A stretch of DNA of 64,000 nt, from the NCBI RefSeq assembly GCF_965641715.1, contig NZ_OZ282453.1. One strand, given 5' to 3'. Every line of letters begins with the position of its first letter. Position 1 is the stretch's first letter. This document shows, piece after piece, positions 1-12,665 of this stretch. The translations under genes were made by a program, and so were the position numbers. The notes beneath the pieces were generated by a model. It was not told the origin of the DNA. It was given only the letters and a program-made list of their open reading frames with translations, and made no database searches. Origin of the DNA: Escherichia coli. GTDB lineage: Bacteria; Pseudomonadota; Gammaproteobacteria; Enterobacterales; Enterobacteriaceae.

Positions 1-35
1 GGAGGTAACCTCGGGCGAGCGCCCCGTTCAGCACA

Positions 36-944
36 CTAATTCTGCTGTAAAAAGTGCAGAAACTGACTTAAAGCATAAGAAGGCGTTTCGTTATTGCGCC
101 AGAACACTCCGACGCTACCTTTCTGTTCTATCTTTGGCAGGTTGAGTATCACCAGTTGTCCCTGGCTGGCATAACGTTGCGCCAGGCGTAATGACAAAAT
201 AGAGATCATATCGCTGCTTTGTAACAGGTTGGTACTGACGTTCATCGACGCCGACTCAATCGTGTTTTCTGGCAGCATTACGCCGTGGTCTACCAGCGCA
301 TTATCAATACTAATGCGAATGGGGGTACCCGTCGGCCAGACGATCCAGCGCCAGTTGGCAAGATCATTCCAGCTGAGGGTGGCGTATTTCGCCAGTGGGT
401 GCTCAGGGCGGGCGACAAAGCATACTGGCTCGGTGTACAGCACCTGATAATTCAGTGGCAGCTGCAATGCGCGACCGCCAATTCGCCCAACGACCACATC
501 GACAGAACCTGCCAATAGATCTTGCAGCAATGGGGTCATCACCTTCTCTTCGATATTCAGGTGTAGAGTTGGCATCTTCGTAAGCAAATGCAAAATCGCC
601 TGGGATACGCAGTCAGTGGCGACAGGAGAACAGCCAATTTTCAGACTGCCGACCAGTCCACCTTGTTTAAAACGGGCCAGTTCATGTTGCGATCGCTCCA
701 TGTCATTGATTAACCGTTGGGCATGTTGCAATAACAATTTGCCGCCTTCAGTCGGACGTAATCCTTTGCTGTGCCGCTCAAAAAGTGTGATTCCAATCTC
801 ATCTTCGAGTTGTGACAACCATTTCGAAAGCGCAGGTTGGGTGATATTCATCATTCGTGCGACATGGGTTAGATTGCCCTGTTCACCCAGCGCCACCAGC
901 ATTTCAAGGTGATGTAGTTTTAATTTTTGCGCCCAGTTCGCCAT
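36..944 (-). CDS. LysR-family transcriptional regulator, divergent from the catabolic operon (MhbR-like)
   Basis: N-terminal HTH (HLEMLVALGEQGNLTHVARMMNITQPALSKWL) and LysR substrate-binding region in the translation; start set at MANWAQ with GGAGG upstream, alternative start at 992; divergent from the transporter gene as in the Klebsiella mhb locus. Confidence 0.75.
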   Translation of the reverse strand: MANWAQKLKLHHLEMLVALGEQGNLTHVARMMNITQPALSKWLSQLEDEIGITLFERHSKGLRPTEGGKLLLQHAQRLINDMERSQHELARFKQGGLVGSLKIGCSPVATDCVSQAILHLLTKMPTLHLNIEEKVMTPLLQDLLAGSVDVVVGRIGGRALQLPLNYQVLYTEPVCFVARPEHPLAKYATLSWNDLANWRWIVWPTGTPIRISIDNALVDHGVMLPENTIESASMNVSTNLLQSSDMISILSLRLAQRYASQGQLVILNLPKIEQKGSVGVFWRNNETPSYALSQFLHFLQQN

Positions 945-1070
945 TTGCCATAACCTCCAGGTTATCTCTCTGCCCGAAATGCCATTGTACATCTCATCTC
1001 TTTAATCACAATATCGCAACATATACAAAACAAAAGAAACATCTACCTTACCTGCACTGAGGCATTTACT

Positions 1071-2429
1071 ATGACTCAACGACGTGATTTACAAGCACTT
1101 ATCGATGCTGCTCCGGTCGGCAAGATGCAGTGGCGCGTTATCATCTGCTGTTTTCTGGTGGTAATGCTCGATGGTTTTGACACCGCGGCTATCGGATTTA
1201 TCGCCCCTGATATTCGCACTCACTGGCAACTCACCGCAGGCGATCTCGCCCCGCTTTTTGGCGCGGGTCTGCTAGGATTAACCGCAGGCGCACTGCTTTG
1301 TGGCCCGTTGTCCGATCGCTTTGGTCGCAAGCGGGTGATTGAGCTGTGCGTCTTTTTGTTTGGCGCGTTAAGCCTCGCCTCGGCTTTCTCACCGGATCTG
1401 CAAACGCTGGTCTTCCTGCGCTTTCTCACCGGCCTGGGTCTGGGCGGCGCGATGCCGAACACCATCACCATGACCTCGGAGTATCTGCCTGCCCGCCGCC
1501 GCGGCGCGCTGGTGACGCTGATGTTTTGCGGCTTTACGCTGGGTTCGGCGTTTGGCGGGATTGTCAGTGCGCAGCTGGTGCCGGTGATTGGCTGGCACGG
1601 CATTCTGGTGTTGGGGGGCGTGTTACCGCTGATGCTGTTTGTCGCACTGCTGGTAGTTCTGCCGGAATCGCCACGCTGGCAGGTGCGCCGCCAGCTACCG
1701 CAGGCGGTGATTGCGAAAACCGTCAGCGCCATCACCCGCGAGCGTTATGTCGATACCCACTTTTATCTCATTGAATCAGCCTCCGTTACAAAAGGCAGCA
1801 TTCGTCAACTGTTTATGGGACGTCAGTTACCCATCACGTTGATGCTGTGGGTAGTGTTCTTTATGAGCCTGCTGATTATTTACCTGCTCTCAAGCTGGAT
1901 GCCGACGCTACTGAACCATCGCGGCATCGACCTGCAACACGCGTCCTGGGTCACCGCCGCGTTCCAGATTGGTGGTACGTTAGGCGCGCTGGCGCTGGGT
2001 GTGCTGATGGATAAGTTCAATCCTTTCCGCGTGCTGGCGCTGAGCTATGCCATAGGCGCTATATGCATCGTGATGATTGGCTTAAGCCAGGATGGATTAT
2101 GGTTGATGGCGCTGGCGATTTTCGGCACTGGCATTGGCATTAGCGGATCGCAGGTGGGGCTGAATGCGCTGACCGCAACACTTTATCCAACACAAAGTCG
2201 CGCCACGGGCGTGAGCTGGTCAAATGCTATCGGCCGCTGCGGCGCGATTGTTGGTTCGCTGTCTGGCGGCGTGATGATGGCGATGAATTTCTCTTTCGAC
2301 ACCCTGTTTTTCATTATCGCTGTGCCTGCGGCGATCAGTGCGGTGATGTTAACCCTGCTGATTACCGTGGTTCGCCAGTCGACCTCTGTCCCTGACTCAC
2401 TGCCTCGCGCAGGCGTTGTGAACGAATAA
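1071..2429 (+). CDS. MFS aromatic-acid transporter (3-hydroxybenzoate/gentisate transporter-like)
   Basis: 452 aa, multiple hydrophobic helices, MFS signature GRKRV loop, first gene of the catabolic operon. Confidence 0.8.
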
Positions 2430-2440
2430 GGAGCATCCCA

Positions 2441-3469
2441 ATGACTGATAACAATCAAAATAGCCGCGAGCAATTTTATCAGCATATTTCCGGGCAAAAC
2501 CTGACCCCGCTGTGGGAGTCACTGCACCATCTGGTGCCGAAAACGCCCAACGCTAACTGTGCGCCAGCGTACTGGAATTATCAGGAGATCCGCCCGCTGC
2601 TACTGGAGAGCGGCGGCCTGATTGGTGCGAAAGAGGCCGTGCGCCGCGTGCTGGTGCTGGAAAACCCGGCGCTGCGCGGGCAGTCTTCCATTACCGCGAC
2701 TTTATATGCCGGTTTGCAACTGATCATGCCGGGCGAAGTGGCACCGAGTCATCGTCATAATCAGTCGGCGCTGCGTTTTATTGTTGAAGGCAAAGGGGCA
2801 TTTACCGCCGTTGATGGCGAACGCACGCCAATGAATGAAGGCGATTTTATCCTGACCCCGCAGTGGCGCTGGCACGATCACGGTAACCCTGGCGACGAAC
2901 CGGTTATCTGGCTCGATGGGCTGGATCTGCCATTAGTGAATATTCTGGGCTGCGGTTTTGCCGAAGATTATCCGGAAGAGCAACAACCGGTAACGCGTAA
3001 AGAGGGAGATTATCTGCCGCGTTACGCTGCCAATATGTTGCCGCTGCGGCATCAGACGGGGAACTCCTCGCCGATCTTTAACTATCGTTATGACCGCAGC
3101 CGCGAAGTGCTGCACGATTTAACCCGACTGGGCGATGCCGACGAGTGGGATGGCTACAAAATGCGCTACGTCAACCCGGTCACCGGCGGCTATCCGATGC
3201 CGTCGATGGGCGCTTTCCTGCAACTGCTGCCGAAAGGGTTTGCCTCACGCGTTGCGCGTACCACTGACAGCACCATCTACCATGTGGTGGAAGGTAGCGG
3301 GCAGGTCATCATCGGCAATGAAACCTTCAGCTTTAGTGCAAAAGATATCTTCGTGGTGCCGACCTGGCATGGCGTGTCGTTCCATACCACGCAAGATTCC
3401 GTTTTATTTAGTTTTTCGGACAGACCGGTACAAGAAGCCCTGGGGCTGTTCCGCGAAGCGCGTTATTAA
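2441..3469 (+). CDS. gentisate 1,2-dioxygenase (bicupin)
   Basis: 342 aa; His-containing cupin motifs ([13 protein letters not shown].., WHDHGN); AAGGAG RBS 7 nt upstream; position in cluster. Confidence 0.85.
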
Positions 3470-3484
3470 TTTAGGAGAGAAAAA

Positions 3485-4186
3485 ATGACTCAATACGTAT
3501 TCGAACCGCAAGCGCCCGTTACCGTACCGGTTGTTGGCAGTGATGAACAATTCCCCGTGCGCCGCGTTTACTGCGTCGGACGTAACTATGCCGCTCACGC
3601 CCGCGAAATGGGCTTTGATCCGGATCGTGAACCGCCATTCTTCTTCTGCAAACCGGCGGATGCCGTTGTTCCGGTTGCCGCTGGTGAAACGCTGGCGCTG
3701 CCGTATCCGGCACAGACCGATAACTACCATTACGAAATTGAACTGGTGGTGGCGATTGGTAAAAAAGGCAGCGATATCCCGCTGGAACACGCCCATGAAT
3801 ATGTCTGGGGTTATGCCACGGGTCTTGATATGACTCGGCGTGACCGTCAAATGGAAATGCGCCAGATGGGCCGCCCGTGGGAAATCGGTAAAGCGTTTGA
3901 TCTCTCAGCGCCCATCGCGCCGCTGCACAAAGCCCGCGATATCGGCGGTATTGATAATGCGCCAATCTGGTTACAGGTTAACGGCGAAGATCATCAGCGC
4001 AGCGATATTCGCCATCTCATCTGGTCGGTGAATGAAACCATCAGCTATCTGTCAGGCTTCTTTGAGCTGCAACCGGGCGATCTGATCTTCACCGGTACGC
4101 CGGAAGGGGTTGGCCCGGTAGTGAAAGGTGATGTGATCACAGGCAACGTCGAGGGCTTAACGCCTATCGCGGTGAAGATTGTCTGA
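3485..4186 (+). CDS. fumarylpyruvate hydrolase (FAH family)
   Basis: 233 aa FAH-fold translation ([25 protein letters not shown]); AGGAGA RBS. Confidence 0.8.
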
Positions 4187-4191
4187 GGTGC

Positions 4192-4839
4192 ATGATGAAG
4201 CTGTACAGTTTTTTTAATAGTTCAGCGTCGTACCGGGTACGCATTGCGCTGGCGCTGAAAGGCATTAATTACCAGACCGAAGGGGTGAATATCCGTATTG
4301 GTCAGCAAAATGAACTGGCCTATCGGCGGATGAATCCGGTCGGGCTGGTGCCGACGCTGCTGACTGACGAGGGCGAATCACTCGGACAATCGCTGGCGAT
4401 TATTGACTGGCTGGAGAGGCACTACCCGCAAGTTCCGCTGGTGCCGCAGGAAGAACCGGCCCGCAACAAGGTGCTGGAAATTGTCTATGCCATCGCTTGT
4501 GATATTCATCCATTGAATAACTTGCGCGTGCTGCGCTACCTGACCGAAGAACTGAACGTCAGTGAAGAAGAAAAAAAACGTTGGTATGCGCACTGGATCC
4601 AGCAAGGGTTAAGCGCGGTGGAACAACTGTTGCGCCAGAACCAGTCGGGGCAATTTTGTGTGGGCGAGACGCCGACGCTGGCAGATTGCTGCCTTGTCCC
4701 GCAGTGGGCGAACGCGCTACGCATGAACTGCGATTTGAGCGGGTATCCACGCTGCAAAGCGGTGTACGACGCCTGCACACAGCTGCCAGCGTTCATTGCC
4801 GCAGCGCCAGAAAATCAACAAGATAAAATTTCAGCCTGA
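4192..4839 (+). CDS. maleylpyruvate isomerase (GST zeta-like)
   Basis: 215 aa with GST N-terminal thioredoxin-like fold (KLYSFFNSSASYRVRIALALKG); start may be the second ATG at 4195. Confidence 0.8.
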   Translation: MMKLYSFFNSSASYRVRIALALKGINYQTEGVNIRIGQQNELAYRRMNPVGLVPTLLTDEGESLGQSLAIIDWLERHYPQVPLVPQEEPARNKVLEIVYAIACDIHPLNNLRVLRYLTEELNVSEEEKKRWYAHWIQQGLSAVEQLLRQNQSGQFCVGETPTLADCCLVPQWANALRMNCDLSGYPRCKAVYDACTQLPAFIAAAPENQQDKISA

Positions 4840-4853
4840 CCAGGAGAACTATA

Positions 4854-6047
4854 ATGACGAAAGTGACACGCGCAGTAATTGTGGGAGGCGGGATCGGCGG
4901 TGCGGCAACTGCGCTGTCACTGGCCCGCCTGGGGATCAAAGTGGTGCTGCTGGAAAAGGCGCATGAGATCGGTGAGATTGGCGCGGGCATCCAGTTGGGG
5001 CCAAATGCGTTTTCGGCGCTGGACAGCCTCGGCGTCGGCGAAGTTGCCCGCCAGCGCGCGGTGTTTACCGATCACATTACCATGATGGATGCGGTGAACG
5101 CCGAAGAAGTGGTGTGCATTGAAACCGGGCAGGCCTTTCGTGACCATTTCGGCGGCCCTTACGCGGTGATCCACCGGGTTGATATTCACGCCTCGGTGTG
5201 GGAAGCGGTACTGACGCATCCGGACGTGGAATATCACACCTCCACCAACGTCGTGGATATTCGCGAGACGGAAGACGATGTCACCGTGTTTGACGATCGC
5301 GGCAATAGCTGGACCGGCGATATTCTGATTGGCTGTGACGGCGTGAAGTCAGTGGTGCGCCAGAGCTTATTGGGCGATGCGCCGCGTGTCACCGGACATG
5401 TTGTCTACCGTGCGGTTATCGATCGTGCCGATATGCCGGAAGATTTGCGCATTAACGCACCGGTACTGTGGGCGGGGCCGCATTGTCACTTGGTGCATTA
5501 CCCTTTGCGCGGCGGCAAGCAGTATAACCTGGTGGTAACATTCCACAGCCGCCAGCAGGAAGAGTGGGGCGTGAAGGATGGTAGTAAAGAGGAAGTGCTC
5601 TCTTACTTTGAAGGGATTCACCCCCGTCCGCGCCAGATGTTGGATAAACCGACTTCATGGCGACGCTGGTCAACCGCTGACCGTGAACCGGTGGCGAAGT
5701 GGGGAACGAAGCGCATAACGCTTGTGGGCGATTCGGCCCATCCGGTGGCGCAATATATGGCGCAGGGAGCCTGTATGGCGCTGGAAGATGCAGTAACGCT
5801 GGGTAAGGCGCTGGCGCAGTGTGAGGGTGATGCGGCGCAAGCCTTTGCGCTGTATGAGTCGGTACGAATTCCGCGCACCGCGCGCATCGTCTGGTCGACC
5901 CGTGAAATGGGGCGGGTTTACCACGCCGCAGGGGTAGAACGCCAGGTACGTAATCTGCTGTGGAAAGGGAAATCGCAGGCAGAATTTTATCGCGGCATGG
6001 AGTGGTTGTACGGCTGGAAAGAAGATAACTGTTTGCAACCACGCTGA
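4854..6047 (+). CDS. 3-hydroxybenzoate 6-hydroxylase (FAD-dependent monooxygenase)
   Basis: 397 aa; N-terminal FAD fingerprint VIVGGGIGGAATALSLARLG; DG and GD FAD motifs (GCDGVKS, LVGDSAHP). Confidence 0.85.
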   Translation: MTKVTRAVIVGGGIGGAATALSLARLGIKVVLLEKAHEIGEIGAGIQLGPNAFSALDSLGVGEVARQRAVFTDHITMMDAVNAEEVVCIETGQAFRDHFGGPYAVIHRVDIHASVWEAVLTHPDVEYHTSTNVVDIRETEDDVTVFDDRGNSWTGDILIGCDGVKSVVRQSLLGDAPRVTGHVVYRAVIDRADMPEDLRINAPVLWAGPHCHLVHYPLRGGKQYNLVVTFHSRQQEEWGVKDGSKEEVLSYFEGIHPRPRQMLDKPTSWRRWSTADREPVAKWGTKRITLVGDSAHPVAQYMAQGACMALEDAVTLGKALAQCEGDAAQAFALYESVRIPRTARIVWSTREMGRVYHAAGVERQVRNLLWKGKSQAEFYRGMEWLYGWKEDNCLQPR

Positions 6048-6157
6048 GCACTTCTTCACCCAATCAGGCGGTCCCCTCGCCCCTTCGGGAGAGGGTTAGG
6101 GTGAGGGTAAAAATCTTGCCCGAATTAATCAGTAAGTCAGTTTGTCTGCAAACACAG

Positions 6158-6186
6158 GAGGCGCTAACATAGCGCCTCATTTTTTT
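6158..6186 (+). terminator. intrinsic terminator-like hairpin (GAGGCGCTA-aca-TAGCGCCTC) followed by ATTTTTTT, 12 nt before the dusC start
   Basis: perfect 9-bp inverted repeat plus T7 run read directly from the sequence. Confidence 0.6.
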
Positions 6187-6198
6187 GCGGGTGATGAT

Positions 6199-7149
6199 AT
6201 GCGTGTGTTACTGGCACCGATGGAGGGAGTGCTTGACTCTCTGGTGCGTGAATTGCTGACCGAAGTTAACGACTACGATCTGTGCATCACCGAGTTTGTC
6301 CGCGTGGTGGATCAACTGCTGCCGGTAAAAGTCTTTCATCGCATTTGCCCTGAGTTACAAAACGCCAGCCGGACACCATCCGGTACGCTGGTGCGCGTTC
6401 AGTTGTTAGGTCAGTTCCCACAATGGCTGGCAGAGAACGCCGCCCGTGCGGTGGAATTAGGTTCCTGGGGCGTGGATCTCAATTGCGGCTGCCCGTCGAA
6501 AACGGTTAACGGTAGCGGTGGTGGGGCGACGTTACTCAAAGATCCTGAACTCATCTACCAGGGTGCAAAAGCGATGCGCGAAGCTGTACCGGCGCATTTG
6601 CCCGTCAGCGTGAAAGTGCGTCTGGGCTGGGACAGCGGTGAGAAGAAATTTGAAATCGCCGATGCGGTTCAACAGGCTGGTGCTACGGAGCTGGTGGTGC
6701 ATGGACGGACAAAAGAGCAGGGTTACCGCGCGGAGCATATTGACTGGCAGGCGATTGGCGAGATTCGCCAGCGGCTGAATATTCCGGTGATTGCCAACGG
6801 CGAAATCTGGGACTGGCAGAGCGCGCAACAATGCATTGCGATCAGCGGCTGCGACGCAGTGATGATTGGTCGCGGGGCGCTCAATATTCCCAACCTGAGC
6901 CGGGTAGTAAAATATAACGAACCGCGAATGCCGTGGCCGGAGGTGGTTGCTTTGCTGCAAAAATATACCCGTCTGGAAAAGCAGGGCGATACCGGGTTAT
7001 ATCACGTAGCGCGGATTAAACAGTGGTTGAGTTATTTGCGTAAAGAATACGATGAAGCAACGGAATTATTTCAGCATGTTCGGGTGTTGAATAATTCCCC
7101 TGATATTGCAAGGGCTATTCAGGCAATTGATATCGATAAGCTGCGATAA
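6199..7149 (+). CDS. dusC: tRNA-dihydrouridine(16) synthase DusC
   Basis: translation from [13 protein letters not shown] matches remembered DusC (315 aa); longer ORF from 6142 would place the hairpin and T-run inside the CDS. Confidence 0.93.
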
Positions 7150-7536
7150 TAGTGGAATCGCAGTTTATCAGAGACAATGAATCGCTTATTCAGCGTCATC
7201 ATCTTGTTGCGCTCCTTTCATGAGCTAAGCCACATATTGCCACTGGCGCAAGGAGCGCGCAGGGGGAGGACAATCGCCTCCTCCCCCTGCACCCCCGGGC
7301 TCTGGCGAACAAAATCGCCGCTGCGCGGTACCTTCAGCTTATCCCCTTCGGCTACCGGGTCGGGCGCGAGGAAACGTCCTTGTAAGACGCGCCCTCAGCC
7401 CACATCCATGTGGGCTGCCCCGGCCTTCGGGGAACGCTTCAGCGATTTTGACGCCACCAACACCGGAGCTGTTTGCAAATCAAGTACACAAAATATCTAG
7501 TTCCTGACCTGACAACTTATATGCCATATCTGATTT

Positions 7537-7620
7537 TTAAAATATCATCTTAAATACGCCAGTCACCACCAGTAGCCCAATCAGGAAAATAATCAATACA
7601 GCCCAGAGTATAATTTTCAT
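7537..7620 (-). CDS. yohP: small membrane protein YohP (27 aa)
   Basis: minus-strand ORF translating to MKIILWAVLIIFLIGLLVVTGVFKMIF, verified codon by codon; AGGA RBS upstream; not in the ORF track (below length cutoff). Confidence 0.7.
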   Translation of the reverse strand: MKIILWAVLIIFLIGLLVVTGVFKMIF

Positions 7621-7843
7621 TGGCGTTCCTTTATTTGTGAGTGCTGAATAAGTATAGGAAAAAACGAAGCCCTTTGCCGTTATCCATAAACGATTAAGAT
7701 AAATCGGAAGATATCATTTACTTAGTGTATATTTTTCTGGATATGTCGTTTTATTGCTACTGATGTATTGCCACGCGGAACTAAAAAATATATCGCAACA
7801 CACGGTAATCTCCGCGCACCTTTTCTTACCTGATTATTCCCCC

Positions 7844-9280
7844 ATGAATCGTGATTCCTTTTATCCAGCCATCGCCTGTTTTCCGCTGTTACTGATGCTG
7901 ACCGGGTGTGCGCCTATGCATGAAACCCGCCAGGCGTTAAGCCAGCAAACGCCCGCTGCACAAGTTGACACCGCATTACCCACGGCGCTGAAAAATGGTT
8001 GGCCAGACAGCCAATGGTGGCTGGAGTATCACGATAATCAACTCACTTCATTAATTAACAATGCACTACAGAACGCACCGGATATGCAGGTGGCTGAACA
8101 GCGCATTCAGCTAGCTGAAGCCCAGGCGAAGGCAATTGCCACTCAGGATGGTCCGCAGATCGACTTTTCTGCGGATATGGAGCGGCAAAAAATGTCGGCA
8201 GAAGGGCTAATGGGGCCGTTTGCTCTGAACGATCCGGCCGCAGGTACGACCGGTCCGTGGTACACCAACGGAACTTTTGGCTTAACGGCGGGCTGGCATC
8301 TCGATATCTGGGGAAAGAATCGGGCGGAGGTTACTGCCCGCCTGGGTACGGTTAAAGCACGGGCGGCGGAACGCGAGCAAACCCGCCAATTGCTGGCTGG
8401 CAGCGTAGCCCGCCTGTACTGGGAGTGGCAAACCCAGGCGGCGTTAAACACGGTCTTGCAGCAAATCGAAAAAGAGCAGAACACCATTATCGCGACCGAT
8501 CGCCAGCTATATCAGAACGGGATTACTTCTTCAGTTGAAGGTGTGGAAACCGATATTAATGCCAGCAAAACCCGGCAGCAGCTCAACGATGTCGCGGGGA
8601 AAATGAAAATTATTGAGGCACGGTTAAGCGCACTTACAAATCACCAGACAAAGTCATTGAAGCTTAAACCGGTCGCGTTGCCGAAAGTGGCAAGCCAGCT
8701 TCCTGATGAACTGGGGTACTCCTTACTGGCCCGGCGGGCAGATTTGCAGGCGGCGCACTGGTACGTTGAGTCATCGCTAAGCACCATTGATGCGGCAAAA
8801 GCGGCATTTTATCCTGACATCAACCTGATGGCCTTCCTGCAACAGGATGCGTTGCACTTAAGCGATCTGTTCCGTCATTCCGCGCAGCAAATGGGCGTTA
8901 CGGCAGGCCTGACGCTACCCATTTTCGATAGTGGTCGTCTTAACGCCAATCTCGATATCGCAAAAGCCGAAAGCAACTTGTCTATCGCCAGCTACAACAA
9001 AGCGGTGGTTGAAGCGGTGAATGACGTGGCGCGGGCAGCCAGTCAGGTTCAGACACTGGCGGAGAAAAACCAGCATCAGGCGCAAATTGAGCGCGATGCC
9101 TTGCGTGTGGTAGGTCTTGCGCAGGCCCGCTTTAACGCGGGCATCATTGCTGGTTCCCGCGTCAGCGAAGCCAGAATCCCCGCGCTGCGTGAGCGGGCCA
9201 ATGGCCTGTTATTGCAAGGGCAGTGGCTGGATGCCTCCATTCAACTCACTGGTGCGTTGGGCGGGGGTTACAAACGCTGA
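7844..9280 (+). CDS. mdtQ: outer-membrane efflux lipoprotein (OMF/NodT family), uninterrupted
   Basis: 478 aa; lipoprotein signal with lipobox LTGC; OMF coiled-coil repeats; single open frame. Confidence 0.85.
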   Translation: MNRDSFYPAIACFPLLLMLTGCAPMHETRQALSQQTPAAQVDTALPTALKNGWPDSQWWLEYHDNQLTSLINNALQNAPDMQVAEQRIQLAEAQAKAIATQDGPQIDFSADMERQKMSAEGLMGPFALNDPAAGTTGPWYTNGTFGLTAGWHLDIWGKNRAEVTARLGTVKARAAEREQTRQLLAGSVARLYWEWQTQAALNTVLQQIEKEQNTIIATDRQLYQNGITSSVEGVETDINASKTRQQLNDVAGKMKIIEARLSALTNHQTKSLKLKPVALPKVASQLPDELGYSLLARRADLQAAHWYVESSLSTIDAAKAAFYPDINLMAFLQQDALHLSDLFRHSAQQMGVTAGLTLPIFDSGRLNANLDIAKAESNLSIASYNKAVVEAVNDVARAASQVQTLAEKNQHQAQIERDALRVVGLAQARFNAGIIAGSRVSEARIPALRERANGLLLQGQWLDASIQLTGALGGGYKR

Positions 9281-9332
9281 TGATATGTGACTTCTATACT
9301 TAACGTTTATTCAGCGTTAAGTGGAGAACTCG

Positions 9333-10094
9333 ATGGCACAGGTAGCGATTATTACCGCCTCCGATTCGGGGATCGGCAAAGAGTGCGCGTTATTACTGGC
9401 GCAGCAAGGGTTTGATATTGGCATTACCTGGCACTCTGATGAAGAAGGGGCAAAAGATACCGCGCGTGAGGTGGTTAGCCACGGCGTACGTGCGGAGATC
9501 GTGCAACTGGATCTCGGCAATCTGCCAGAAGGTGCGCAGGCGCTGGAGAAACTCATTCAACGGCTGGGGCGTATTGATGTGCTGGTGAATAATGCGGGCG
9601 CAATGACCAAAGCGCCGTTTCTTGATATGGCTTTCGATGAGTGGCGCAAGATTTTTACCGTTGATGTCGATGGTGCATTTTTATGCTCACAAATTGCGGC
9701 CCGCCAGATGGTGAAACAAGGGCAGGGCGGTCGCATCATCAACATTACGTCGGTACATGAACATACGCCGCTGCCGGATGCCAGCGCCTACACAGCCGCT
9801 AAACATGCGCTCGGTGGGTTAACCAAAGCGATGGCGCTGGAGCTGGTCAGACATAAGATTTTGGTGAACGCAGTCGCGCCTGGGGCGATCGCCACGCCAA
9901 TGAATGGCATGGATGACAGCGACGTGAAGCCCGACGCGGAGCCTTCGATTCCTCTGCGGCGTTTTGGCGCAACGCATGAGATTGCCAGCCTGGTAGCGTG
10001 GCTGTGCTCAGAGGGCGCAAATTACACCACCGGGCAGTCGTTGATAGTGGATGGCGGCTTTATGTTGGCGAATCCGCAGTTCAACCCAGAATAG
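9333..10094 (+). CDS. yohF: short-chain dehydrogenase/reductase YohF
   Basis: Rossmann TASDSGIGKECA, catalytic YxxxK (YTAAKHA); start at MAQVAII with GGAG RBS. Confidence 0.9.
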   Translation: MAQVAIITASDSGIGKECALLLAQQGFDIGITWHSDEEGAKDTAREVVSHGVRAEIVQLDLGNLPEGAQALEKLIQRLGRIDVLVNNAGAMTKAPFLDMAFDEWRKIFTVDVDGAFLCSQIAARQMVKQGQGGRIINITSVHEHTPLPDASAYTAAKHALGGLTKAMALELVRHKILVNAVAPGAIATPMNGMDDSDVKPDAEPSIPLRRFGATHEIASLVAWLCSEGANYTTGQSLIVDGGFMLANPQFNPE

Positions 10095-10134
10095 CGCAGT
10101 GAGGTGCGTGGTTATTTCAATGGGTAAAATTTTG

Positions 10135-10214
10135 GTAGGCATGATAAGACGCACAAGCGTCGCATCAGGCATGGTGCCCCGGATGTCGGATGCGGCGCGA
10201 ACGCCTTATCCAGG
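10135..10214. repeat. BIME: two REP units (GATAAGACGCACAAGCGTCGCATCAGGC and CGGATGCGGCGCGAACGCCTTATCC)
   Basis: REP consensus-like palindromes between convergent yohF and yohD. Confidence 0.7.
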
Positions 10215-10223
10215 GCAATGGTT

Positions 10224-10802
10224 TTACGCCTGATTATCCGGCTTTTTCTTCCCGCGTCGTTTCAGCCACCAGCGCACGCCTACCACCAGAACCACGACCA
10301 GAATCAACCAGACCCAGTGCTTCAAATGCTGGTCGAGAGTGTGCAACCACGGCGCAATCACCTGACCACCAGCGTAACCGATAGTGGTAAAAATCAACGC
10401 CCAGGCAAATGCGCCGAGAATATTAAGCGGCAGAAAGATTTTCGGCGGCAGCTGGCTGGCACCAATCAGCGTCGGGCCAATCACCCGAAAGCCATACATA
10501 AAGCGCGTACCAATGACAAACAGATACGGATGGCGTTGGATAAGTTTCTGCGCCCGCTCAATTTTATCCTGATGTTTCGAGAAACGGCGTAACAGCTTGC
10601 CGCCAAACCGCCGCCCGCACAGATAAAGCACCTGGTCGCCAATCATGCCGCCAAGCGCCACAGAAAGTACCACCAGCGGGAACTTTAATAGCCCCTGATG
10701 CGCCGCAACGCCTCCCAGCAAAGTCACGGTTTCACCTTCCGCCAGGCTACCGATCACCAGCGCGGCATAACCATATTGTGAGATGAGTGTATTGAGATCC
10801 AT
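10224..10802 (-). CDS. yohD: DedA-family inner membrane protein YohD
   Basis: translation from MDLNTLISQYGYAALVIGSL matches remembered YohD (192 aa). Confidence 0.9.
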   Translation of the reverse strand: MDLNTLISQYGYAALVIGSLAEGETVTLLGGVAAHQGLLKFPLVVLSVALGGMIGDQVLYLCGRRFGGKLLRRFSKHQDKIERAQKLIQRHPYLFVIGTRFMYGFRVIGPTLIGASQLPPKIFLPLNILGAFAWALIFTTIGYAGGQVIAPWLHTLDQHLKHWVWLILVVVLVVGVRWWLKRRGKKKPDNQA

Positions 10803-10971
10803 AGGCCAGTCTGTCTCCCTTTGGTTGCCTGTAAGCATACACCCTGGAAATCATTCACGCTGAAAAAGGACGTACATCAGACGGTGCAAATTACATGAGC
10901 GAACAAAAAATAATCACAAGCTGACTTATACTTGAACTGTCAGGTTCATGAACTCACAACAAGGGGGCGGT

Positions 10972-11559
10972 ATGAGCCATGTCTGGGGACTGTTTTCCCA
11001 TCCCGATCGTGAAATGCAGGTGATTAATCGCGAAAACGAAACGATTTCTCACCATTACACCCACCACGTTTTGCTGATGGCGGCGATTCCGGTGATTTGC
11101 GCCTTCATTGGCACTACACAGATTGGCTGGAATTTTGGCGATGGCACTATCCTGAAGTTATCCTGGTTTACCGGACTGGCGCTGGCTGTCCTGTTTTATG
11201 GCGTTATGCTCGCTGGGGTCGCGGTGATGGGGCGGGTCATTTGGTGGATGGCGCGTAATTATCCGCAGCGTCCGTCACTTGCGCACTGCATGGTCTTCGC
11301 GGGCTACGTTGCAACTCCGCTGTTTTTAAGCGGTCTGGTGGCGCTTTATCCGCTGGTCTGGTTGTGTGCGCTGGTCGGCACGGTGGCACTGTTTTACACC
11401 GGTTACCTGCTTTACCTTGGTATTCCGAGCTTCCTGAATATCAACAAAGAGGAAGGCCTTAGCTTCTCCAGTTCGACGCTGGCGATTGGCGTGCTGGTAC
11501 TGGAAGTGCTGCTCGCCCTTACCGTTATACTATGGGGCTACGGTTATCGTTTGTTCTAG
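10972..11559 (+). CDS. yohC: inner membrane protein YohC (Yip1 family)
   Basis: translation from MSHVWGLFSHPDRE; polytopic membrane protein. Confidence 0.9.
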   Translation: MSHVWGLFSHPDREMQVINRENETISHHYTHHVLLMAAIPVICAFIGTTQIGWNFGDGTILKLSWFTGLALAVLFYGVMLAGVAVMGRVIWWMARNYPQRPSLAHCMVFAGYVATPLFLSGLVALYPLVWLCALVGTVALFYTGYLLYLGIPSFLNINKEEGLSFSSSTLAIGVLVLEVLLALTVILWGYGYRLF

Positions 11560-11732
11560 AAAGTTCTTTGACGTTGCATTGCTGGCGTAAATGTCAGCAA
11601 TGCAGCATTTCCTCACGATTCTCCTTTGACGATCGCACTTTTTGCTCGTTATGATGGCGTCGCTAGCCTCAGTAAATCCTTACTCCGGCGGTGCGCAACC
11701 CGTGCGCGTGAACCACTATCTGAATGCTCATC

Positions 11733-12665
11733 ATGCCGAAATTTCGAGTTTCTTTATTTAGCCTGGCCCTGATGCTGGCTGTGCCTTTTGCACCGCAGGC
11801 CGTTGCGAAAACGGCAGCCGCTACCACCGCTTCACAACCGGAAATTGCCTCCGGTAGCGCGATGATTGTTGATCTGAATACCAACAAAGTGATCTATTCG
11901 AACCACCCGGATCTGGTGCGTCCGATTGCGTCTATCAGCAAATTAATGACTGCGATGGTCGTGCTGGATGCACGACTGCCGCTGGATGAAAAACTAAAAG
12001 TGGATATCAGCCAGACGCCGGAGATGAAAGGGGTCTATTCGCGCGTACGACTGAATAGCGAAATCAGCCGTAAAGATATGCTGTTGCTGGCGTTGATGTC
12101 TTCAGAAAACCGCGCGGCGGCAAGCCTTGCGCACCATTATCCCGGTGGTTACAAAGCCTTTATTAAGGCGATGAATGCGAAAGCGAAATCACTCGGAATG
12201 AACAATACGCGCTTTGTTGAACCAACCGGATTGTCGGTGCATAACGTTTCAACCGCCCGTGACTTAACCAAACTGCTCATTGCCAGCAAACAATATCCGT
12301 TGATCGGGCAGTTAAGTACTACCCGGGAAGATATGGCAACCTTCTCTAACCCGACGTATACGCTGCCGTTTCGCAATACTAATCATCTGGTGTATCGCGA
12401 TAACTGGAATATTCAGTTAACCAAAACCGGCTTTACCAATGCGGCGGGCCATTGTCTGGTGATGCGTACGGTTATCAATAATAAACCGGTGGCGCTGGTA
12501 GTGATGGATGCGTTTGGCAAATATACCCATTTTGCCGATGCCAGTCGCCTGCGTACCTGGATTGAAACCGGTAAAGTGATGCCTGTTCCGGCAGCAGCGT
12601 TGAGCTATAAAAAACAAAAAGCCGCCCAAATGGCGGCGGCGGGGCAGACGGCACAGAACGATTAA
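11733..12665 (+). CDS. pbpG: D-alanyl-D-alanine endopeptidase PBP7
   Basis: signal peptide, SxxK (SISK), SxN (SSEN), KTG motifs; start at MPKFRVSLF. Confidence 0.93.

Follow-up and report, generated by a model that had tools for sequence, protein, structure and literature searches.

We read positions 36–6047 of the window, the 64-kb stretch of Escherichia coli DNA analyzed here, as the enterobacterial mhbR-mhbTDHIM locus, carrying a proposed pathway from 3-hydroxybenzoate through gentisate to fumarate and pyruvate. In this reading, to which we assign a probability of approximately 0.88, the locus is ancestral between yohJ and dusC, and the empty site in K-12 represents a single derived replacement. 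The presence of the gene set in some E. coli, including O157:H7, is already known.

Six ORFs were identified in the region. As described in the first-pass annotation, a LysR gene on the minus strand diverges from five closely packed plus-strand genes for a transporter, a dioxygenase, a hydrolase, an isomerase, and a hydroxylase, and the families were confirmed by NCBIfam, Pfam, and PDB matches. The LysR-type transcriptional regulator gene mhbR (36–944, minus strand) was assigned from Pfam, the span of the RefSeq records, and the Klebsiella orthologues. Translation probably begins at the ATG at 944, for a 302-aa product in agreement with the RefSeq records, rather than at 992, where the 318-aa ORF starts. 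A distance of 126 nt separates mhbR from mhbT (1071–2429), which is followed on the plus strand by mhbD, also named gtdA (2441–3469), mhbH (3485–4186), mhbI, also named maiA (4195–4839, with 4195 as the likely start), and mhbM (4854–6047); dusC starts at 6199, 151 nt past mhbM. The gaps within mhbTDHIM are 11, 15, 8, and 14 nt. Gaps of this size (8–15 nt), together with one strong terminator 3' of mhbM, point to a single-operon structure.

Three of the products exceeded the curated equivalog cut-offs of NCBIfam, namely those for gentisate 1,2-dioxygenase, maiA, and 3-hydroxybenzoate 6-monooxygenase. MhbD scored 598 bits against TIGR02272 (cut-off 442 bits) and matched the crystallised E. coli O157:H7 gentisate 1,2-dioxygenase (PDB 2D40) at 341 of 342 residues, the sole mismatch being His315 in place of Gln. 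MhbD contains His104, His106, and His145, which we take to be the metal-ligand triad of the Fe2+ bicupin, numbered as in Adams 2006. MhbI, a zeta-class GST of the glutathione-dependent maleylpyruvate isomerase type, scored 309 bits against TIGR01262 (cut-off 171 bits), as well as 166 bits against the maleylpyruvate isomerase structures PDB 2JL4/2V6K and 232 bits against 6JWK. It also carries the sequence SSASYRVRIAL, in which the pattern SSxxxRVRIAL is presumably the N-terminal glutathione-site motif of the zeta-class GSTs.

The last gene of the operon, mhbM, was assigned to an FAD-dependent 3-hydroxybenzoate 6-monooxygenase. A salicylate hydroxylase has been entered for EHEC and for S. Typhi t0680 in older annotations and metabolic models (PMC3229490, PMC5820949), and the title of PDB 4BJY itself reads 'probable salicylate monooxygenase', as would fit a salicylate/gentisate pathway for which 3-hydroxybenzoate is not a substrate. 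However, MhbM scored 756 bits against the 3-hydroxybenzoate 6-monooxygenase equivalog NF006021 (cut-off 459 bits), compared with 138 bits against salicylate 1-monooxygenase, far below the cut-off of 446 bits. In the alignment to 4BJY, Tyr103, His212, and Gln300 of MhbM correspond to Tyr105, His213, and Gln301 of the R. jostii enzyme 3HB6H, the active-site residues mutated in the deposited structures PDB 4BK3, 4BK1, and 4BK2, and Arg169 is also present. Furthermore, the Klebsiella orthologue of MhbM is a characterised 3-hydroxybenzoate 6-hydroxylase (PMC3572157). A pathway restricted to salicylate is very improbable on this evidence, and we retain 3-hydroxybenzoate as the predicted substrate.

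The remaining three products were placed in families with lower resolution. MhbH contains the Pfam FAA_hydrolase domain (185 bits) and matched PDB 6J5Y with 379 bits and 4MAQ, a 'putative fumarylpyruvate hydrolase', with 246 bits; its putative substrate, fumarylpyruvate, follows from gene context and orthology. MhbT, which bears the same name in RefSeq, resembles the MFS aromatic acid:H+ symporters, with PcaK at 428 bits and AAHS TIGR00895 at 380 bits, both below the cut-offs. MhbR contains the Pfam domains HTH_1 and LysR_substrate, and its top NCBIfam match, PcaQ, reached 187 bits, likewise below the cut-off. Since these scores fall short of the equivalog cut-offs, the specificities of the transporter, regulator, and hydrolase rest on context.

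In the proposed pathway, MhbT would take up 3-hydroxybenzoate, and MhbM, using FAD, NAD(P)H, and O2, would hydroxylate it at C6 to yield gentisate. The Fe2+ enzyme MhbD would then cleave the gentisate ring to form maleylpyruvate, MhbI would isomerise the maleylpyruvate to fumarylpyruvate with the use of glutathione, and MhbH would hydrolyse the fumarylpyruvate to fumarate and pyruvate. Accordingly, the cluster predicts 3-hydroxybenzoate and gentisate use by the source strain, as in O157:H7, a prediction of small practical value. Both compounds are breakdown products of plant polyphenols.

A perfect 16-bp dyad, ATAACC-TCCA-GGTTAT, was found at 950–965 in the mhbR 5' leader, where it also holds the mhbR Shine-Dalgarno sequence GGAGG (minus strand). 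The dyad occurs once in the 64-kb window (0.01 expected). Of 16 aligned loci spanning the site, 13 match it exactly and the remaining three differ by one or two substitutions, including Serratia, Leminorella, and Xenorhabdus. This conservation makes it a candidate operator, at which MhbR probably binds, turning on the operon when the aromatic acid, the putative inducer, is present and repressing mhbR. The counts from the promoter and terminator scans of the region were not above those of shuffled sequences, and only the elements conserved across genera were kept. For mhbR, these are the boxes of a sigma-70-like promoter on the minus strand (984–1011; -35 TTGTGA at 1011–1006, -10 TACAAT at 989–984), whose -10 box (ATTGTA) is conserved across the enterobacterial alignment, while the consensus scan gave no convincing sigma-70 promoter for mhbT. 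The other is an intrinsic-terminator-like element on the plus strand (6158–6186), consisting of a hairpin (6158–6178) with a 9-bp stem including six G-C pairs and a run of seven T, located 13 nt upstream of the dusC ATG. The hairpin is conserved in Citrobacter and E. albertii, is still present in K-12, which lacks the operon, and is likely the terminator of the mhb operon.

Among 5,426 complete E. coli genomes, the cluster was found in 611, at the yohJ-dusC site in 503 of them. O157:H7 and O55:H7 genomes carry the complete 6.1-kb cluster at this site with 99.7% identity, and the closest records (99.9%) are from commensal or clinical strains. Copies were also found in IS-rich islands and on plasmids of approximately 224 kb. 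As the first-pass annotation had stated, K-12 MG1655 and K-12-like genomes lack the cluster between yohJ and dusC. The left boundary indeed falls outside the window, albeit only just, as the left edge in the comparison with K-12 lies 23 nt before position 1.

In place of the cluster, which is absent from 91% of the complete genomes, 4,920 other E. coli genomes share one single-copy filler of approximately 90 nt. The filler is identical in K-12 and in the two other lineages sampled, O2:K2:H1 and O7:K1 CE10, and K-12 keeps the full mhbM-dusC spacer with the terminator hairpin. The shared single-copy filler and the kept spacer and hairpin lead us to read the K-12 state as one old deletion or replacement. 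In a comparison of the inner 90 nt with the 6.1-kb island, the local alignment score of 21–22 was close to the mean for shuffled controls (21.3). We therefore rejected the filler as a remnant of mhbR or mhbM, and the event was a replacement rather than a clean deletion. An origin of the filler as a repeat element was ruled out by its single copy. The K-12-type site thus looks like a single derived replacement of approximately 6.06 kb by approximately 90 nt, now the majority haplotype in E. coli.

The locus had also been called a strain-specific metabolic island. It is absent from K-12, but the 611 carriers, O157:H7 and O55:H7 among them, show that it is not strain-specific. We also weighed the acquisition that the word island implies, in which the source lineage received a genomic island by horizontal transfer into a K-12-like yohJ-dusC intergenic region. 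The absence of the cluster from most genomes fits such a gain, as does its G+C content (~0.53–0.62), which is somewhat above that of the surroundings and looks somewhat high for E. coli (~0.51 genome-wide). The mhb module is also mobile elsewhere, as its presence in IS-rich islands and plasmids indicates, and within E. coli the mhb alleles are more divergent than their flanks (3–8% versus 0.5–2% in one comparison). The carriers, however, lack the K-12 filler, so the two states are not linked by simple insertion. The yohJ and dusC junctions contain no integrase gene, IS element, tRNA, or direct repeats, and thus neither mobility genes nor tRNA/att-like repeats mark the locus as a genomic island, nor is it missing from the site in relatives. 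The sampled outgroups, including E. albertii, E69, Citrobacter, and Klebsiella, carry mhb at the exact site with matching spacers.

More than 20 species, spread over at least 10 genera, share the order cdd-yohK-yohJ-mhb-dusC-mdtQ, including E. albertii, Citrobacter, Klebsiella, Raoultella, Kluyvera, Pluralibacter, and Shimwellia. In comparisons with other genera, the nucleotide identity of mhb matches that of the flanks, and the neighbour-joining gene tree agrees with the species tree and places every E. coli copy in a single clade. Based on this cross-genus synteny, the flank-tracking divergence, and the agreement of the trees, we regard mhb as an ancestral locus that was subsequently deleted in the majority haplotype. 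It was probably lost by most E. coli, including K-12, from the ancestral Enterobacteriaceae yohJ-dusC locus rather than gained here, and acquisition as an island is quite unlikely. The correction therefore concerns the direction of change. What resembles a strain-specific island relative to K-12 is the ancestral condition among enterobacteria, and the deletion in K-12 is derived, with consequences for the counting and interpretation of 'O-islands' and accessory genes.

The higher divergence of the mhb alleles within E. coli might mean that related Escherichia lineages supplied them anew through homologous recombination, instead of simple vertical retention. We also considered, tentatively and at less than even odds, that yohJ-dusC is an old two-allele polymorphism. 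Here, mhb would have been kept in approximately 9% of the genomes with alleles several-fold more diverged than the core flanks, a filler allele of single origin would have swept the rest, and virulence-associated islands (beside efa1/lifA) and large plasmids would have picked up the operon again from chromosomal alleles of E. coli. If true, such a polymorphism would suggest niche-dependent selection for the use of plant phenolic acids, with ruminant and bird guts as possible niches. Horizontal transfer into Serratia marcescens is suggested by the 86–91% aa identity of its mhb cluster, which lacks the yohJ/dusC flanks, but the nucleotide identity of 78–82% is not decisive.

The cluster might be intact in sequence yet cryptic in E. 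coli, either silent or decaying, and confer no growth phenotype. Most E. coli have lost mhb, and damaged copies exist, with an mhbM frameshift in ML35 and an IS truncation in NCTC9100. Our literature search covered population analyses of the locus and the growth of E. coli on gentisate or 3-hydroxybenzoate. It returned passing mentions only, and no paper reporting growth of mhb carriers on 3-hydroxybenzoate was found in it. On the other hand, the window and hundreds of genomes carry the six ORFs in intact form, and conservation extends to the regulatory dyad, the promoter, and the Shine-Dalgarno sequence. In vitro activity has been reported for the O157:H7 dioxygenase (PMC4585797, citing Adams 2006), and the S. 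Typhi orthologues respond transcriptionally (PMC5820949). We therefore consider a cryptic cluster unlikely and expect the operon to be expressed. In the statement of Robson 1996 cited in PMC3572157, K-12 needs Klebsiella DNA to use 3-hydroxybenzoate and gentisate.

The closest characterised counterpart is the mhb cluster of Klebsiella 'pneumoniae' M5a1 with its LysR activator MhbR (PMC3572157 and references therein), which shares the divergent regulator and the order T-D-H-I-M. Among described species, K. michiganensis is the nearest to M5a1 (PMC5723360) and served as its proxy. The correspondence in gene order noted at first pass extends from the window and the Klebsiella loci (K. michiganensis and K. 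spallanzanii) to Raoultella, Citrobacter, and others. Over at least 60% of each protein, the products are 84–91% identical in amino acid sequence to the K. michiganensis and K. spallanzanii orthologues (84–85% for MhbR to the same-position Klebsiella orthologues, 86% for MhbT to K. michiganensis), and the Klebsiella locus has the same chromosomal neighbours, yohJ and dusC. Unlike the O157:H7 cluster (PDB 2D40; Adams et al. 2006), the window comes from a non-O157:H7 genome.

In S. enterica subsp. diarizonae, the cluster adjoins dusC-mdtQ with 85–93% aa identity, as judged from the right half of the locus, the only part retrieved. Goetz and Harmuth reportedly observed growth of S. typhimurium on m-hydroxybenzoate in 1992. 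S. Typhi t0677-t0680 encode all four enzyme types, identically ordered (PMC5820949), and regulation of the gentisate genes by bile has been reported in Salmonella only. The nag/sgp clusters of Ralstonia sp. U2 and other Burkholderiales share the chemistry, with a gentisate dioxygenase, a glutathione-dependent isomerase (NagL, 166 bits), and an FAH-type hydrolase. They differ, however, in gene order and regulators and are entered from naphthalene or salicylate, not 3-hydroxybenzoate. The betaproteobacterial loci retrieved showed 53–74% identity and rearranged orders.

Compared with Klebsiella M5a1, the E. coli allele in the window has an extra dispersed intergenic repeat of approximately 100 nt (6053–6155) inserted in the mhbM-dusC spacer, outside the pathway. 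This repeat sets the right boundary of 6158/6159 obtained in the K-12 comparison, which we rejected; the true deletion edge is the mhbM stop codon. An Rfam scan of window positions 1–10000 (E ≤ 1) gave no matches. Strain F719, E69, E. albertii, and Citrobacter lack the insertion and have a spacer of 61 nt. Per E. coli genome, the median number of places with the repeat core is 14, and the full insertion is present in 367 genomes.

In the ORF listing, the minus strand carries the LysR regulator gene mhbR (ORF 36-992), and the plus strand carries mhbT (transporter, 1071-2429), mhbD (gentisate 1,2-dioxygenase, 2441-3469), mhbH (FAH-family hydrolase, 3485-4186), mhbI (isomerase, 4192/4195-4839), and mhbM (3-hydroxybenzoate (3HB) 6-monooxygenase, 4854-6047), with dusC (ATG at 6199, end at 7149) downstream of the cluster. 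According to the RefSeq annotation in near-identical genomes, mhbR starts from the ATG at 944 (302 aa) and mhbI from 4195. The intergenic gaps inside the plus-strand block are 11, 15, 8, and 14 nt, indicating a one-operon layout. Using the NCBIfam curated equivalog cut-offs, we assigned MhbD as a gentisate 1,2-dioxygenase (598 bits; cut-off, 442), MhbI as a maiA-type zeta-GST isomerase (309 bits; cut-off, 171), and MhbM as a 3-hydroxybenzoate 6-monooxygenase (756 bits; cut-off, 459), which scored only 138 bits as a salicylate 1-monooxygenase. MhbT (the RefSeq name) falls in the PcaK/MhpT group of aromatic-acid:H+ symporters, and MhbR, of the LysR family, has PcaQ as its nearest match; both score under the cut-offs. 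MhbH belongs to the FAH family; its nearest PDB entry is 6J5Y, and 4MAQ, a 'putative fumarylpyruvate hydrolase', was also matched. The window MhbD is identical at 341 of 342 positions to the crystallised E. coli O157:H7 dioxygenase (PDB 2D40) and keeps His104, His106, and His145. Alignment of MhbM with the Rhodococcus jostii 3HB 6-hydroxylase structure (4BJY) identified Tyr103, His212, and Gln300 as the counterparts of the positions that carry the mutations in 4BK3, 4BK1, and 4BK2, and showed that Arg169 is present. The family scores, the near-identity to 2D40, and the 4BJY alignment confirmed the gentisate/3HB gene set described in the first-pass annotation.

A likeness to the Klebsiella mhb locus had also been claimed, and it held. 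We scanned one genome per species with MhbM, followed by tblastn with the six products and the flanking proteins, and found the same R / T-D-H-I-M order in Klebsiella michiganensis and K. spallanzanii, with 84-91% amino acid identity. Strain M5a1, whose 3HB pathway and genes are described as characterised in PMC3572157 and its references, is close to K. michiganensis (PMC5723360). According to Robson 1996, as cited in PMC3572157, growth of K-12 on 3HB requires Klebsiella DNA. The O157:H7 gentisate dioxygenase is reported as purified and active in PMC4585797, citing Adams 2006, and gentisate dioxygenase is among the EHEC-specific reactions missing from K-12 (PMC3229490). The mhb cluster is therefore already known; it is widely annotated and is named by NCBI's pipeline.

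As proposed, the cluster is absent from K-12 at yohJ-dusC, where MG1655 and its relatives have a spacer of only 238 nt. It is not strain-specific, since at least 80% of it is present in 611 of the 5,426 complete E. coli genomes. In 503 genomes mhbM adjoins dusC, while 4,920 of the 5,426 carry the K-12-type filler, a sequence of ~90 nt that occupies the site instead, always as a single copy with at least 95% identity. Together these account for nearly all genomes, so that the site has two alleles. Among the lineages sampled, K-12, the O2:K2:H1 strain C 237-04, and the O7:K1 strain CE10 share identical empty-site junctions.

The cdd-yohK-yohJ-mhbR / mhbTDHIM-dusC-mdtQ arrangement was found in a divergent Escherichia (E69), five Citrobacter species, Klebsiella, Raoultella, Kluyvera, Pseudocitrobacter, Pluralibacter, and Shimwellia. 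E. albertii has the same yohJ-mhb arrangement on a contig that stops after mhbM, and a Salmonella diarizonae locus, which is short of the yohJ side, has the dusC-side half. In the genera with the conserved arrangement, mhb and the flanking genes have equal nucleotide identity to the window (mhb 80-86% and flanks 74-84% for C. werkmanii; 88-92% and 87-92% for E. albertii). For the concatenated cluster, the neighbour-joining tree agrees with the species tree, and one clade holds every E. coli copy. K-12 keeps ~88 nt of the yohJ-side spacer and, up to the would-be mhbM stop codon, the entire 61-nt mhbM-dusC spacer with its terminator hairpin. No filler was present in mhb carriers in the locus comparison, and no integrase, tRNA, IS element, or direct repeat was found at the cluster junctions. 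The data are most simply explained by an ancestral mhb at yohJ-dusC and a single replacement of ~6.06 kb by ~90 nt in an E. coli ancestor. The first-pass interpretation is supported overall, and what it termed an island fits an ancestral locus that most E. coli have lost better than it fits an acquisition, given the synteny across genera, flank-like identity, species-like tree, and junctions free of mobility marks. Divergence from the window is 3-8% for mhb alleles within E. coli and 0.5-2% for the flanks of one strain with such an allele (F719); mhb may have been kept for a long time while the flanks were homogenised, or imported again from related lineages.

The filler lies at 5885-5985 of a K-12-like locus, has no counterpart in the window, and contains a hairpin with an 11-bp stem (AGAGGGATTGC...GCAATCCCTCT). 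Its similarity to the island was not above that of shuffled controls, so we rejected an origin from it, and no repeats of it were found elsewhere in the 4,920 single-copy genomes. The window itself has an insertion of ~100 nt in the mhbM-dusC spacer (6053-6155), which accounts for the apparent right boundary at 6158/6159 in the K-12 comparison. This insertion is shared with O157:H7, occurs in full in 367 genomes, and is missing from other mhb alleles and other genera. Within it lies CCCCTCGCCCCTTCGGGAGAGGGTTAGGGTGAGGG, which we take to be a boxC-like dispersed repeat of intergenic regions; the median E. coli genome has its core at 14 places.

The cluster is located away from yohJ-dusC in ~100 genomes, and in the tree these second-site copies fall inside the E. 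coli clade, indicating derivation from E. coli chromosomal alleles. In O145:NM, a whole-cluster second-site copy (6036-12047 of locus L003; 97% identical) lies in an IS-rich island beside efa1/lifA. The ML35 copy is in an island with a tyrosine integrase and has a frameshifted mhbM, and in NCTC9100 an IS30 trimmed the cluster to a 209-bp mhbM remnant. Large E. coli plasmids account for 26 places; on those of ~224 kb, the cluster is flanked by IS91, IS3, and IS1414 remnants, and pCFSAN004181P (224 kb; 5928-11953 of locus L085) shows mosaic identity to the window (mhbT 91.8%, mhbM 98.2%). On a 9.2-kb contig of a MAG labelled Collinsella sp., the encoded MhbR and MhbT match the window proteins at 100% identity and MhbM at 98%, mhbH and mhbI are missing, and mhbD diverges in part; the most likely explanation is mis-binning of an E. 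coli contig into this actinobacterial MAG. Two Serratia marcescens loci have the full mhbRTDHIM (86-91% amino acid identity to E. coli) and no yohJ/dusC neighbours, and may represent transfer from Enterobacteriaceae.

The 126-nt mhbR-mhbT spacer contains a perfect 16-bp dyad, ATAACCTCCAGGTTAT, at 950-965, which occurs once in the whole window. Relative to mhbR it is part of the leader, follows a conserved -35 TTGTGA / -10 TACAAT pair, and contains the mhbR Shine-Dalgarno sequence. Of the 16 loci aligned across it, which reach out to Serratia, Leminorella, and Xenorhabdus, 13 have the dyad unchanged and the other three depart from it by 1-2 bases. On this sequence pattern it is a candidate MhbR operator, at which bound MhbR would repress its own gene and activate mhbT. 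The sole strong plus-strand terminator is formed by a hairpin (6158-6178) and the seven T residues after it. In carriers and K-12 alike, this terminator-like element ends only 13 nt upstream of the dusC start codon, so that transcription of dusC may depend on read-through or on a promoter not yet recognised. Farther downstream, mdtQ is intact in the window (7844-9280, 478 aa; NF008524 match, 1023 bits), whereas that of the K-12-like genome is a frameshifted pseudogene.
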